Part shown: positions 15,001 through 21,000 of the stretch, one piece after another | Position numbering within the stretch: position 1 is the stretch's first letter | How the letters are laid out: each line of letters opens with the position of its first letter | Program-made: the position numbers | Assembly: GCA_051652765.1 (NCBI GenBank) | Contig: JBOFUV010000034.1 | Coordinates: 128,001 to 192,000, forward strand | Length of the DNA: 64,000 nt | Origin: Microcoleaceae cyanobacterium | GTDB taxonomy: Bacteria > Cyanobacteriota > Cyanobacteriia > Cyanobacteriales > Microcoleaceae | Direction of reading: 5' to 3'

Positions 15001-18000
15001 TTGCTTCGCGAGTGATTTGCCTTGCTTGCTCACTATCCAGCATTTCGACGACATCATCAGCTACGCCTCCAAAAGTTGTAGCAAATTCGTCGCGAGTGAT
15101 GCGTCTTGAGCGTCTGACTAACTCACTAAACATAGTCTCTAGTTTCCCATTTTTTCAAATACATTAAGAACACAGGTATCCGATCTCATTCTACGATCGC
15201 GCTTTGCCATATTGTTTTTTGTCGCACTACCAGGCTCCTGTTGCCGACCGCGAGAAACATAGGTCGTGTCAAGCCAACTTAAGCCACAAGCGATCGCCAT
15301 CGAAGAAACATCTGACGGAACATCATGATTTGGGTTTTCGGGTCTAAGCCCACTCCACTTAGGTAAAAAGATGCATAGCCTCCCGCTAGGGTTCAAGGAT
15401 TCAGCTAATGCGGCTATTACTTCTTTCATTATAGAAAGATAGTTATCATAACTCTTAGCAGATGCTAGCTGATCATCAAATAAGTGACTAGACTGTCCGT
15501 AGTACGACGGATCGATAAAGATCCAATCAGCTTTAATTGGCAGAGGATTTCGCGCATCGTGCTTTTTAATAAAGCGACGACGGGGGTACAAATCAAACAA
15601 CTTGATTTTTAACTGAAAGTTAGAGTCTTTCTGCCAGCGATCGCTCTCCTAAATGTTTCTGAGTCAAGTTTAGCATTCACTCCTAACCGATAACCTCGCT
15701 GGCACTGTCCTAGCCCAAAAACGAAGCTAGCTAACGATTGAGTTCACCCACTACTGATAGCTTTGGGACTAATCCAGTAATGCTATTGCAGGTCGGGTGC
15801 AGTGATTGGTTAGCTCGACTTGGGCGAGCTGACTGTCTCTTGACTCAGCAAAACGACCAGCGCAGATGATGCAAACCCTCTCTCAACATAGTCAGTCGCC
15901 CTTCGGTTTAACTCCACAGGGAAGCTGTGGTTCGCTGGCAAGATAACGACCAAGATAAGCAGATTTTGAGAGCGGCGATTGCTTTTGGGAGGAAACTAAA
16001 ACTTGCAAATCCGCTCTCAAAATTCCGCTGCAACGACTTGTTATACGGCTTTACAGAGGAATTAGCTTACTCTCATCATTAAACTCAGCAAATATGTATT
16101 CATGAGCGCTTTCTGGAACGGTGTTATCAGACACAATAATTTGCAAACGATTCTGATACTCCTGACCAACTCGGATTATATAACTATAAATAGCTTCAAT
16201 ACGTTCACGATCCAATCCCTCATAGCCGATATTGCCAGATAGACCATCAATTAACAAGATATTGGGAAGTTGTAAGTCAAAATGAATGCAGGTTAGTTGG
16301 TGTGCTAAGGCATGGGCAGTATTAACCATCACCTTGAGACCTTGAGACTCCAATTCATCAAAACGTCTTCCCTCAAAGCGTGGTAAGTACGTTTTGCGAT
16401 CAATAATTGATGGTCCCGGATCTGAAAAAGATGGTACTCGAATTTCCCGTAAAATCGCTTGATAAGTGTTGTCCAGAAAAATCAGATAGCTCTCAAAATC
16501 TGAAACTCGGCTATTAGCTAGATCAATAGCCACATCTAACTCTTCAAGACGAGATTCAAGTTGTTCAATAGTGCTGATAGCCTGATCTTGCCGATTATAC
16601 AGTCCGAGATATTCTTCTAGACGCTGCTTCTGCTCCTGTAATTGGGTACGATGTTGTTCCACCTGTGCTATCTGCTCTGCTTGTTCGGAGACGTAGCGGT
16701 GAGTCCGGTGGTTTATCTCGGAGGATAAAGCTTGGCGTTGTGCATCCAATCGAGCGATTTCCTGTTCGATGCCAGTAGTTGCAGTTCGATGTGCATCAAC
16801 TAGTTCAAAAGTTTCAGTGATTTGTTGTTCTAAGCGATCTTGTTCCTTGATCAAATCATCTTGGGTTATTTGCGGTTCTGGTTGTTGCAAGCACAGATAA
16901 CATATTTCTGATTCAGTTCGGGATGGTTGAATAGAAGAGCCACAGCGTGGGCAAGAAAGGAAATCGAAATCAAGCAAATAGTTTCCTGCCACAATCGACT
17001 TGGTAAGTCTGGCACTTTGAGTCTGTAGTTGGGCAATGAGACTCTGTTTCTGTTCAAGGCTATATTGCTCATACTGAAGATTCTGATGAAATTCATCTAA
17101 TTGTCGCTGCACTACTAAGAGGCTGCTTCGTAACTCGTCCGTATTTGTATAACTTCTAATTTCCTGTCCTAGATTTTCCGAATCTGAATGTGCAGTTTCT
17201 AGTTCTCTAGTCACATTATTAAGATTATGGACAATAGCTGCTCGATTCTCAAAAGGTGTTCCAGTAAGAAATTCTTCAATTGTTTTAGTGTAATTCTGCA
17301 AACGCCGAATTTCACTGACTGTTTCACGGCGTTTCATCTGTAGCTGAGCTATTTCAACATCATATTTGCCATAAATAACTTCAAAGACGTACTTACGCTT
17401 GTTGTTTTTGTGAGGATTGGTATGTTCAAAAACGCTACTATCAATTTCATCTTGACGGAGATGGCAATACATCATGTAATCATTGATAGATAAAGGTGAT
17501 GTATCACTGTCATCTTGAGTTGGCGCTGTAGGAACTCTCAAAGTTGGCAGGTTGAGTTTTTCCAGCAACCACGTTCCGTAGGTCTCTTCATCGGACTTAC
17601 CACGCAAAGCTGGTAAACGTTTCGCCTCATTCTCACCAGCAATAGAAACCATTGCATCACTTGTCGTAACGAAAGGTCTGATAATCTCATATGCATTGTC
17701 GCCAATGAGAATCTCTCCAGCAAGATTGGTGATGTTCTCACGAGCTTCTCTTGAAAAATCTTTGAGCACTGAACCCAGCAACCCACGAAAGCACTTAATT
17801 AGGGTTGTCTTTCCAGTTGTGATCGAGCCAGTAATAACGTTTAATCCAGGTGCTAGAGAAAATTCACGCTCAATGCCCAACAAGTCGATTTTATTAATGT
17901 GGATTCTCATAACTTTTGGCCCCAAGAAGCACTAGTAACCTCAGGAAAATGCTGGTAAATGAAGTCCTTAAGCTTACTACCAGTAAGATTAAAATTCTGT

Positions 18001-21000
18001 TTCAATAGTTTGATACGCACGTTGGTTTCTGACCAGCTTTGTTCTTTCGACAGGGCTTTGGCAATCTGACTACCACGCTCTGTAGTGCGATAGCTCAGAC
18101 CTCTTTGATTCGGAACCGTTTCGACTAAACCTTTACCAATAAGTCTGCCAAGTATAGCGTAGTATGCGGGATCCCAAGGACCGTATCGATAACGAATCAT
18201 ACGCCCTTCAATATTTTGTTGCTCCTCAGCAGCTACTTCCATAACTTGATTCGATGAGCGAATGGCTAGAGCACGTTGCATAAAGCTAGGATAACGTAGC
18301 AGAAAATCAAGTTTGGCTAACTTAGTTCTGCCTTCTAGAGATTTAGTCGATGTAGTAAACGCATTAATAAGCAGCAGGATGCGTGCTTCGCTTTCGATGG
18401 AAGGTTGAAATAGTTCCTTACGCAATTTTCACCCCCCAATCGATGCGACATTCATCAGAAATCCCGCAGACTGCACCAAGTAGCAGATAGGGATCTTGCT
18501 TATATACTCGATGAGGATCGACCGATTCTTTTTTTTGGGTTAGTTCATTAATTACAGCTCGCCAGATAATCTTGGCCGGTTTCTCTGACTCATCATGCTC
18601 TTCCACAATTGAATTTGTGAGTGTTTGAATTCGGATCTGCACATCTACAAATTTTTCTTCTTCCATGAAGAAGCCTGATGATAAAATTTCGGCTTCACGG
18701 ATAGAAGCATTTGCTCGTAGCTCTTTGGCATTTTTAATAATGCGTTCAGTAGCTCCGCCTGCTATGAGTTTCTTTTCTAGCTTAGTTGGGGTAGGTGCAT
18801 TGAGGTCAGTAATTCGCAACAGCAAGGGATAATCACCACTTATAAGGGAGCCAATGATATCAGTGATATTGTTGGCAGTAAGGCGTTTTGCATCTATCCT
18901 GGCTTTGGTTTCATCTTCAAGCTCTTCTACTTTTGCAATATAGTAGTATAAAAGATTATCCAAGCGATCGCAGGACATTGCTCGAAGAATTTCATCAGTA
19001 AGCTTTTCTTCGAGAGACTTAATTTCACGAATTGATGTGCTTGCTGAGACTTCCCCCATTAGGTGAATATTATGTGATGTAACGTGCGCTCTGGGAGGCT
19101 GGTTAGGATGAACAGTAACAGCTTCAAGAAAAGTGTTGCACTCAGAGTCTTCAATCTCAAGTTTTTTAGATATCTTCTGTACAAGCTCGTCTGACATACC
19201 GCGCTTAGAGTGAGTTAAGGCATTGAGATCATCCTTGGCAGATATTGCACCTTCGATAAAGAGGCTGTATTTAGCTACTAAAGAGGATGTTTCAGTAAAA
19301 GCCCGGTATAAACTTTTCAACCCGTCCATAGCAGCAGTCAATGTCCATTGACCCAGATCTGCATTCCGGGTTTTGACTTGAATAAAGTGCCAGTAATCAT
19401 CATATTCAACAACAATATCTTCAAAGTGCTCCATGATGACAGAGCGTACTTTTTCTTTGCGCGCACATGCTAGGCAGAAAGGCAAAGCAAGTTGTGCCTG
19501 ATAGCGAAACCGCTTCAGTGTATCGGTACCTGTATCATCGGGCGGTGTTTGATTGAGAGGATTTTTCATTGTGTGCTGCTATGGAAGCTTCGGACAAAGC
19601 TATATACTTCATTGATGGAATATCTATACCCATAATGTCAAGGAACAAATATCTGTACCACCATTAGCTTTCAATTTTTGCCTTTAAGCAGCGGAAATAG
19701 AAGCCTTACAGTAACTCCTTTATCAATGGGTGAGCCGTATAACTAGTTATTAGGTTGAAACCTTTAGTCTAATCACCCTATTTGAGTACGTTAGGCTGAA
19801 ATTCGCAGTCTAATCCACCCAAAATAGTAGATTAGATAGAAACTTTCCGTATATTTCCGCAGGCCATCCAGATTTTTTCGGCTTAGCATCGATTTATGAA
19901 GCATTTAGACGGAAACTTTCCGTTTATCCCGCAATGGAACAACGCCCCAAAAAGCCGTTGGAGCAGGTGCGCGATGTGATTCGGCTCAAACACTATGATG
20001 GAAGAAGCTATTTCTAGATCAATAGTTGAATAAATCTGTGGCGGGTTACGCTTGAGTTCAGATTGATTGCTCATCGAACCTACATTGATCTCACACTTAG
20101 ATAAAGTTGATCGTAGAGCATTTGCCCGTTGATCTCATACCAAACCCGCATTGATCTCAGACTAAACCCGCATTGATCTCAGACTAAACCCGCGTTGATC
20201 TCAGACTAAACCCGCATTGATCTCAGACTAAACCCGCGTTGATCTCAGACTAAACCCGCATTGATCTCACACCAAACCCGCGTTGATCTCGCACCAAACC
20301 CACGTTGATCTTGCATTGTAAAGCTTTCTCTAAAATGAAGTTATTGAGCCTTCTAGTTTCCTGATAAAGCCCCCAAACCCCTAAAATTGGGGGCTTTGAG
20401 CACTTTCCAATCCTTCCAGTCCCTCCAGAATTGGGGGGCAAAGGGGGAAGATTATACCGCTATTCAGCAACGCCAAGGAACCTACTCTTTGGGGGGTTCA
20501 TCCTTGTCCCGAGGCTCAGTCAGAACGTGCCAAGCCGCTCGGGCTGCATCTGCAATGCGATCGCTAAAGTCCGCTAAATCTTCAACGAGGCTGTGCCAAT
20601 TTTGTTCGGCCTTGCTCTCTAAGTTTTGAAAGGAGGCTTCGATTTCAGTTTGATCAATGAGTCGGATTTTTTCAATCGTCTCCTTCGCCTGATTCACCGC
20701 TTTAATGTAAGTTTCACGGGTAAATTCCCCAGCAGATCGCATCTCAGCCTGAACCAATTTTTTGATCGCTTCAATCAGTTCATCGGTGCTCTGTTTTGGA
20801 TCGCTTGCGGTTGGATTGACGGGACTTACAGGCTCAATGGTAGACTCTTCGGGTAAATTTCTAGGCTCATTCTCATTCATCGCTGGGTCTCCTAATATAA
20901 AAAGTTACTGATTCAGATGCTTTGTGTTTCCCTGAAATTTTAAAGGTTTTTTGGGATCACGTCGTGGAAAATGGCGGGTTCCCTGCTGCTTGTTCTAGGG

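Follow-up and report, generated by a model that had tools for sequence, protein, structure and literature searches.

A complete three-gene Lamassu operon, very probably carried as a single integron cassette in a Microcoleaceae cyanobacterium

The window, a stretch of 64,000 nucleotides from contig JBOFUV010000034.1 of a Microcoleaceae cyanobacterium (GCA_051652765.1), contains a cassette array with a three-gene Lamassu defence system in first position behind an attI site. The features of this array are listed below, with positions counted along the window.

19934..20017, plus strand: 5' stub of intI, 27 codons, divergent from the array (from translation)
19741..19790, minus strand: attI, crossover G|TT between 19743 and 19742; its repeated copies are alike up to GTT and then diverge
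15947..19742, minus strand: Lamassu cassette of 3,796 bp at the head of the array, with attI crossover, lmuA, lmuC, lmuB and attC in order
19570..19742, minus strand: non-coding leader, 173 bp, conserved in cassette-type orthologues (alignments)
18418..19569, minus strand: lmuA, 383 aa, Cap4-type nuclease effector (PADLOC LmuA 3.3e-26; Pfam Cap4_nuclease PF14130, E 1.9e-14)
17907..18425, minus strand: lmuC, 172 aa, ABC-3C middle component (PADLOC LmuC 3e-10; Pfam MC2)
16051..17925, minus strand: lmuB, 624 aa, SMC-like ATPase (PADLOC LmuB 2.1e-95; Pfam AAA_23)
15941..16046, minus strand: long-variant attC (~103 nt) ending the Lamassu cassette, beginning 4 nt past the lmuB stop
15729..15946, minus strand: second cassette, ~138 bp non-coding plus a standard attC (15815-15729), recurring in many arrays of the genome
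13398..15728, minus strand: third interval, with a methyltransferase fragment, a NurA-like gene, a DUF433-DUF5615 pair and an attC (13483-13398)
11931..13397, minus strand: fourth cassette, with two ORFs of no known family (136 and 205 aa) and an attC (12013-11931)

The three Lamassu genes are adjacent, overlapping and in the same orientation. In LmuA, E47-D51 and Q64-x-K66 are invariant in all ten aligned rows; D51, Q64 and K66 are presumably the catalytic residues, as in the PD-(D/E)xK fold. A fold search returned solved LmuA chains as best matches, but only at E 1e-3, and since the LmuA model is of low confidence (pLDDT 53) this match is only a lead. LmuB shows a Walker A motif GSITTGKT, two CxxC motifs and a Walker B motif ILLIDG, with G33-K39 and D560 invariant, while coiled coils are indicated by the predicted model and the fold search. 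Its best fold match is the type II Lamassu LmuB 9uxh, with an E value of 9e-15. At 624 aa and with two CxxC motifs, LmuB fits the description of the short clade (~600 aa, 0-2 CxxC; PMC12663957), although its Walker B reads hhhhDG in 11 of 12 aligned rows and not hhhhD[Q/S/T/E] as in the published short-clade consensus. Not being placed in the published tree, the system was not filed in a named clade. Sequence searches of the PDB matched no Lamassu chain. The dN/dS ratio lies between 0.06 and 0.21 in all 12 gene comparisons, and on this measure lmuA, lmuC and lmuB are under purifying selection.

The operon resembles the type II Lamassu or ABC-3C systems with Cap4, such as DdmABC of Vibrio cholerae and Salmonella LmuACB (PMC12663957; 10.1101/2025.03.14.643221). 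The gene order lmuA-lmuC-lmuB is the same, as are the Cap4 nuclease domain and an SMC-like LmuB of ~600 aa with a Walker A motif, and the LmuB fold is closest to solved LmuB chains. In contrast, identity to the solved chains is only 13-16%, the Vc-Cap4 clade has no CxxC where the window protein has two, and the Walker B is hhhhDG. The location also differs, as integron context is mentioned nowhere in PMC12663957. By homology to these systems (PMC12663957; 10.1101/2025.03.14.643221), two LmuB together with LmuC would keep LmuA inactive, and the LmuB-LmuC complex would bind DNA ends arising in phage infection or plasmid entry. LmuA released with ATP would then assemble as a tetramer and cut DNA regardless of sequence, thereby aborting the infection.

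Next, the ends of the unit were considered. Sites were called with profile and covariance models; an ad hoc scan gave many false matches and missed the Lamassu attC. The crossover G|TT lies at 19743|19742, and the R'' and R' boxes of the attC at 16046-16040 and 15947-15941. The 5' end of the cassette agrees with its own R'' arm over 11 nt, bearing out the match of 10 out of 10 given in the genome-wide survey's note. On variable positions the ends match 8/8, which is the best of 55, as none of the 54 other cassette 5' ends of the same genome equals it; this score is reached by 0.37% of 2,970 non-cognate pairs. Of the 25 matches to the attI pattern, C19, C65 and C97:24310 were left out of this test as not platform-like. 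The G+C content of the cassette is 41%, against 46% for the genome.

The same note had raised two doubts, a weak long attC and a hidden internal one, and both are now reduced. A covariance model was trained on 45 standard sites, with all long sites left out, and its full-length match to the Lamassu attC reaches 34.2 bits (E 4.1e-6); the orthologous locus L008 has a standard attC (74 bits) in the same place. For the bottom strand of the Lamassu attC the folding z is -4.0, and the pairs of the attC model covary (90% paired; 0 of 500 shuffles). Between 16047 and 19743, no attC was found by the covariance model with filters off and up to E 10, nor by nhmmer. The claim that a complete three-gene Lamassu system forms one first-position cassette behind an attI is thus upheld by the attC, the matching ends and the lack of an internal site.

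A long interval might also be a compound, formed either by several cassettes that lost the attC sites between them or by a small cassette that later received an operon through another route. Such intervals are common: in other genomes, the ends disagree and the content is mixed in 8 of 10 picked intervals above 2.5 kb, and in the present array the third interval, whose ends match only 3/8, is probably compound itself. For the Lamassu unit this origin is very improbable and largely refuted. The three overlapping ORFs leave no room for it, lmuB ends just before R'', the ends match fully and no transposase or terminal repeat gene lies within the interval based on its ORF and Pfam content. Moreover, orthologues keep identical boundaries at a synonymous divergence of 0.36-0.74. 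The reading we favour, and consider highly probable, is a true integron cassette in which all three genes of a type II Lamassu-Cap4 operon are intact and whose proteins would work as the solved Lamassu do.

Thirteen distinct close homologue loci were compared. An attC directly follows lmuB in six of them, while seven have none; besides L008, the scores are 64 bits for L010, 45 for L009, 31 for L052 (truncated), 20.5 for L048 and 14 for L049. The boundaries of the cassette recur in L008, L048, L049 and L052. For L048 and L049, homology begins in the crossover region and breaks off at the R' box (15943-15944), with different neighbours downstream. L008, L048 and L052 lie behind attI-like sites of differing sequence with the same G|TT, whereas the 5' crossover is lost in L010. 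Since orthologues from genomes and metagenomes share the crossover but have different attI-like sites and an attC beside different neighbours, the operon has moved as a unit. Of 300 genomes sampled from the order, only two have a close LmuB, and of 16 in the family none has; the named hosts of L006, L007, L009 and L010 are four different lineages.

Another possibility might be that an attC was added several times downstream of resident Lamassu operons, with cassette and non-cassette forms interconverting and the shared ends marking a preferred capture point rather than the circulation of a single cassette. The closest relatives indeed differ in attC type, long in the window and standard in L008, and the attC state needs four changes on the lmuB tree, where L052 (with attC) is the fully supported sister of L051 (without). 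However, exchange of attC between cassettes and later loss fit the tree equally well, and the whole 173-bp leader and the crossover are common to the window, L008, L048 and L049, and these four group in a single starred DNA clade (98/99). Repeated capture in place is unlikely.

The cassette would have reached first position when an integrase joined its attC to attI, as expected from integron biology; the intI that supplied the enzyme may have been lost later, may be unassembled or may have been borrowed. The intI stub is 90% identical at the DNA level to the start of intI and its upstream region in G302, a genome of the same genus in which intI is full-length with one internal stop. About 20-22 attI copies are dispersed over the genome, and the motif is also found upstream of intI in G302, G311 and G315. 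Intact intI genes are present in G315 (C66) and G316 (C2). No intact intI stands beside attI as in a complete integron, so the array was filed as attI-bearing and integrase-less. The assembly yielded no match over the TIGR02249 cut-off and no whole intI; without IntI, the array is presumably now frozen. A scan for consensus sigma-70 promoters found none pointing into the array, with 5 sites seen against 9.5 expected. An empty orthologous site was found in neither G301 nor G302, because the flanking genes are not neighbours there. A search of sequencing runs gave no run with more than 12% of words, and no RNA run was listed.

The unit may be seen as a fossil, integrated once by IntI and now, with a decayed attC and a dead platform, a fixed chromosomal defence operon. 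Besides the lone stub, the Lamassu attC has L-box mismatches and three non-standard L-arm pairs, and its computed chance of R-box pairing is 0.18, against 0.75 and 0.93 for two standard neighbours. The long sites of L048, L049 and G169 are degenerate as well, and non-cassette homologues exist. On the other hand, the R boxes are intact, the right-arm variant is found also in standard attC sites of the same genome, and intI exceeds the family cut-off in 4 of 30 related genomes. Such a fate is quite possible, if somewhat short of probable; it agrees with a cassette origin and denies only present mobility.

Integron cassettes are usually described with one or two small genes. In this genome, the median of 66 att-to-att intervals is 1,017 bp, and four exceed 3.5 kb. 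Three further long cassettes had been proposed by the survey, on contigs C22, C45 and C132; in all three the att boundaries hold and an internal attC is absent. C22 was described as a type ISP restriction-modification, vapBC and Uma2 block. Its type ISP/IIG gene is not intact: it consists of two ORFs (587 and 447 aa) split by a DUF2281-PIN toxin-antitoxin pair and followed by Uma2, whereas its best relatives (86-87% identity) are single proteins of ~1,040 aa. The end match of C22 is weakly diagnostic, since 9 of the 54 other 5' ends equal it. C45 does carry the NotI-type pair, a NotI-family endonuclease and a D12 methyltransferase inverted against the att sites, but at 1.9 kb it is of ordinary two-gene size within the published range and not outsize. 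The supposed methyltransferase pair of C132 is one 711-aa methyltransferase and a 290-aa protein without Pfam or PADLOC family that is weakly linked to type II endonucleases.

A second long cassette lies in the same window.

51740..51775, plus strand: second attI, without intI stub, crossover 51773|51774
51774..57976, plus strand: cassette of 6,203 bp, whose eight genes all run opposite to the att sites
57878..57982, plus strand: long-variant attC closing this cassette (35.8 bits, E 1.7e-6)

Its genes are an N6 methyltransferase (678 aa), a specificity subunit (479 aa), a nucleotidyltransferase-HepT pair, a UPF0175-DUF3368 pair, an HTH protein and a 144-aa ORF. The ends match 8/8 and the covariance model finds no internal attC. 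At the orthologous site of G302 the cassette is missing and its flanking genes are adjacent. This cassette and C50 (4.3 kb, a single ORF of 1,331 aa) are the two strongest further cases of the genome, and neither was in the survey's note.

The related genome G313 has an 8.66-kb five-gene Mza unit with ends matching at 12/12 nt and a standard attC, as well as a 6.5-kb E1-E2-JAB operon unit with ends matching 7/8; both lack an internal attC. These units suggest that cyanobacterial arrays likewise take in further complete operons, 4 to 9 kb in length. The assumption that any long att-to-att interval is a cassette was rejected in view of the mismatched intervals described above, and so was the idea that long cassettes require a long attC, as the attC is of the standard type in L008 and in the Mza unit. 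A survey for the long attC gave no match in viral contigs nor in 143 genomes of the family. Among 400 genomes it gave two matches, of which one is real (G169) and that of G296, a 31-nt piece only, was dropped.

Integron-borne defence cassettes likewise hold anti-phage genes between att sites, placed first by attI (10.1101/2024.07.02.601686; 10.1101/2024.07.02.601719). According to Kieffer et al. (10.1101/2024.07.02.601719), brc128 is similar to Lamassu type 1, with two ORFs and without the Walker B of DdmC. In the accessible part of the preprint by Darracq et al. (10.1101/2024.07.02.601686), integron defence systems never exceed two components; in contrast to what these sources describe there, the present cassette has three genes including the SMC subunit, and others have five (Mza) or eight. 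The arrays of PMC4889954 (2016) and the intI-inactivated arrays of Xanthomonas (10.1101/2025.06.18.660453) are likewise short and have no functional intI beside them, whereas the window genome keeps attI, mostly with the same intI stub. According to PMC4889954, the largest known cassettes measure ~2 kb, the basis of the 4-kb threshold of IntegronFinder; the cassettes here are larger. Excision is lower above 1.5 kb (PMC5371416).

The component parts are already known, while cassette size and gene number are beyond the published limits (~2 kb, two components). A three-gene SMC-based system as one cassette, with its 6- to 9-kb companions, breaks this limit and offers natural substrates for determining the bounds of cassette size. 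That one operon exists both as a cassette and outside one, with differing attC types, also provides a handle on how cassettes are made. First-position cassettes of integrase-less arrays and intervals above 4 kb fall outside the rules of standard pipelines, and therefore a class of defence cassettes may be missed. The case is about evenly balanced for a wider picture, in which cyanobacteria would have a dispersed integron system, each genome holding many attI docks that lack an integrase, and would exchange complete multi-gene defence operons (Lamassu, Mza, restriction-modification blocks, ubiquitin-like, NLR-like; of 3 to 8 genes and as long as 8.7 kb), each as one cassette and in part by means of a long attC subtype. 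If so, the rule of one or two genes would reflect Vibrio arrays and the 4-kb and 200-bp rules of IntegronFinder rather than integrons themselves.

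The genome-wide survey's note had claimed that a complete three-gene Lamassu system forms a single integron cassette, and this is borne out. Judged by its genes and relatives, the window (contig C34:128001-192000) comes from a cyanobacterium. Three overlapping ORFs in it match LmuA, LmuC and LmuB, respectively, in PADLOC, belong to the Pfam families Cap4_nuclease, MC2 and AAA_23, and lie between an attI and a long-variant attC:

15947-19742, minus strand, Lamassu cassette with lmuA, lmuC and lmuB (383, 172 and 624 aa)
16046-16040 (R'') and 15947-15941 (R'), minus strand, Lamassu attC, starting four bases past the lmuB stop
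19934-20017, intI stub of 27 codons

The cassette measures 3,796 bp with a G+C content of 41%, versus 46% for the genome. Upstream of lmuA, AACTAG|TT places the crossover at 19743|19742. The 5' end equals its own R'' arm at 8/8 variable positions; no other 5' end among 54 fits this arm equally well, and a full 8/8 is seen in 0.37% of 2,970 non-cognate pairs. A covariance model was built from 45 aligned standard attC sites of this genome, excluding the long ones. In its consensus structure 90% of cells are paired and 120 changes are two-sided, more than in any of 500 shuffles or any slid control. With filters off, five strong sites were retrieved in the window (13483, 12013, 15815, 57878 and 16046). 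The last is the Lamassu attC, and its 34.2 bits (E 4.1e-6) ease the earlier doubt raised by its weak profile score. The suspicion of a hidden internal attC is likewise eased, with none found inside the operon up to E 10 under the same settings. Against the Lamassu attC stand three non-standard L-arm pairs and a computed R-box pairing of 0.18, lower than in both standard neighbours compared. The unit is very probably a cassette in origin, carrying an intact operon. Lamassu systems and integron cassettes are already known; new are their combination, its size and the companion cassettes.

LmuB contains a Walker A motif (33-40), CxxC at 325 and 342, and ILLIDG at 556. Its model (pLDDT 75) has solved type II Lamassu LmuB chains as nearest folds (E 9e-15). 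In LmuA, D51, Q64 and K66 are kept in 10/10 aligned rows. According to PMC12663957, short LmuB proteins average 600 aa, have zero to two CxxC motifs, bind to the ends of DNA and depend on Walker A; the window LmuB departs from the Walker B consensus given there. As described in 10.1101/2025.03.14.643221, LmuA is sequestered by LmuB and LmuC and, once released, forms a nuclease tetramer. By analogy, we infer the same mechanism for the window system: LmuB and LmuC would hold LmuA, and its release would yield the nuclease tetramer, leading to abortive infection.

The attI pattern has 25 matches in this genome, of which 22 were kept and three dropped. About 20 places agree in sequence up to the attI GTT and diverge beyond. 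The arrangement of attI, an identically truncated intI stub and a common repeat behind it is found at window 19743-20320 and some 20 further places, as if this platform had been amplified as a unit. A profile search of the assembly found no intI over the TIGR02249 cut-off, and a full IntI query retrieved just N-terminal pieces, besides two weak hits of its C-terminal part to other recombinases. Since the assembly consists of 158 contigs and some platforms sit at contig ends, a whole intI may be present in the genome and missing from the assembly. Among 30 relatives, four have a match above the cut-off. In G302, of the same genus, a 90% identical attI region lies upstream of a full-length intI with one internal stop. 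The complete genome G310, of the same family, carries, in a stretch of about 50 kb (C1:4.45-4.52 Mb, L062-L065), three near-full intI copies and several fragments, each with short arrays.

The 66 att-to-att intervals of the genome have a median of 1,017 bp, with four of them longer than 3.5 kb. The companion cassettes are:

51774-57976 of the window, plus strand, 6.2 kb, eight inverted genes
Contig C22, 4.75 kb, type ISP/IIG gene in two ORFs (L022:1383-5194), a DUF2281-PIN pair separating methyltransferase from specificity part, plus Uma2
Contig C50 (L036:812-5032), 4.3 kb, one NACHT-TPR-CHAT ORF of 1,331 aa (NLR-like, caspase-type domain)
Contig C132, 3.0 kb, two-gene unit, methyltransferase and a partner in no family
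Contig C45, 1.9 kb, two-gene unit

The 6.2-kb cassette, between attI and a long attC with ends agreeing 8/8 and no attC within, includes a methyltransferase, a specificity subunit, two toxin-antitoxin-like pairs and an HTH gene. At the orthologous G302 site it is absent, and the flanking genes adjoin without attI. For C22, proposed as type ISP RM, vapBC and Uma2, the Uma2 gene stands, while the RM gene is not whole. Among the 120 longer relatives listed, the best are single proteins; several longer relatives have extra internal Vsr-, Uma2- or RayT-type domains. C132 had been described as a methyltransferase pair, which does not hold; the partner shows a weak Atlas lead to endonucleases. The 5' R' of the C50 cassette is ATT, not GTT. 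The third interval of the Lamassu array holds, at window 14081-15600 (minus strand), part of a methyltransferase gene and a NurA-like gene that lacks a HerA partner; this is probably a larger cassette in truncated form.

All three full long attC sites of the genome close first-position units ranking among the four longest (chance 9e-5, post hoc), and long units weakly favour first position (3/4 vs 14/62, p 0.05). The long type is rare, being found in none of 143 family genomes, and is not required for long cassettes. A non-coding cassette of 138 bp (window 15729-15946), whose 5' end is constant, recurs in about nine arrays; it follows two of the three long sites and, on contig C156 (L085:1500-1545), is joined to one half of a long attC. 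In G169, a degenerate long attC lies behind a restriction-modification gene of 1,280 aa, and a cassette-like 5' end is about 4.1 kb away from it. This solitary 4.1-kb unit (L090:6896-11033) has no attI and perhaps reflects secondary-site integration.

In G313, an 8,658-bp unit between two attC sites (G313:C22, L045:4337-12983) directly follows a Lamassu cassette orthologue. The unit is a five-gene Mza system (cytosine methyltransferase and MzaB-E) with ends agreeing in 12/12 nt. Another G313 interval (C92, L068:1196-7650; 6,466 bp; ends 7/8, of a common type) holds genes for E1, E2, JAB and a TraG/VirD4-like ATPase plus two of unknown kind, all in one orientation, and may be a ubiquitin-like defence cassette that has not been described before. 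As a control, 8/10 intervals above 2.5 kb in other genomes, picked for length and thus not a frequency, have mismatched ends and mixed content.

According to Cury et al. (PMC4889954), the largest known cassettes are about 2 kb, attC sites are clustered within 4 kb and, where intI is missing, genes are counted only 200 bp before the first attC. The Darracq preprint (10.1101/2024.07.02.601686) uses these defaults, defines as a cassette whatever lies between two attC sites, and reports integron defence systems of never more than two components. Given those defaults and that definition, the Lamassu cassette would have escaped such a count. In Loot et al. (PMC5371416), excision is lower at 1,500 bp or more if one site folds poorly, is still measurable at +3,000 bp, and the limits are 'not stringent'. 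Kieffer et al. (10.1101/2024.07.02.601719) describe brc128, with two ORFs, as Lamassu type 1-like. In a search of openly available papers and preprint main texts, mostly at listing level, neither a three-gene Lamassu cassette nor an Mza cassette turned up (also consulted: 10.1101/2025.06.18.660453, 10.64898/2026.03.17.712381, PMC12614218, PMC12409362, PMC8618304).

Close homologues of the operon occur at 13 distinct loci (L002 and L010 being one record, L051 and L055 counted once). The three genes are under purifying selection, with dN/dS 0.06-0.21 in 12/12 comparisons. Immediately 3' of lmuB, an attC is present in six: L008 (74 bits), L010 (64), L009 (45), L052 (31, truncated) and, as weak long-type sites, L048 and L049. 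None was found there in the other seven (L006, L007, L003/L019, L050, L051, L053, L054). The same G|TT start is seen in L008, L048, L049 and L052, preceded in L008, L048 and L052 by attI-like sequences, each unlike that of the window, and in L049 by other sequence; L010 has lost its leader and L009 is interrupted by its contig end. The downstream neighbours differ in every case, and the operon thus seems to have travelled whole. Since loci occur with and without attC, the lmuB tree needs four changes for attC state, and the starred DNA clade (window, L008, L048, L049) contains two attC types, sequence comparison indicates that the Lamassu operon occurs both as a cassette and in non-cassette form, and that its attC sites underwent exchange, loss or gain on more than one occasion.
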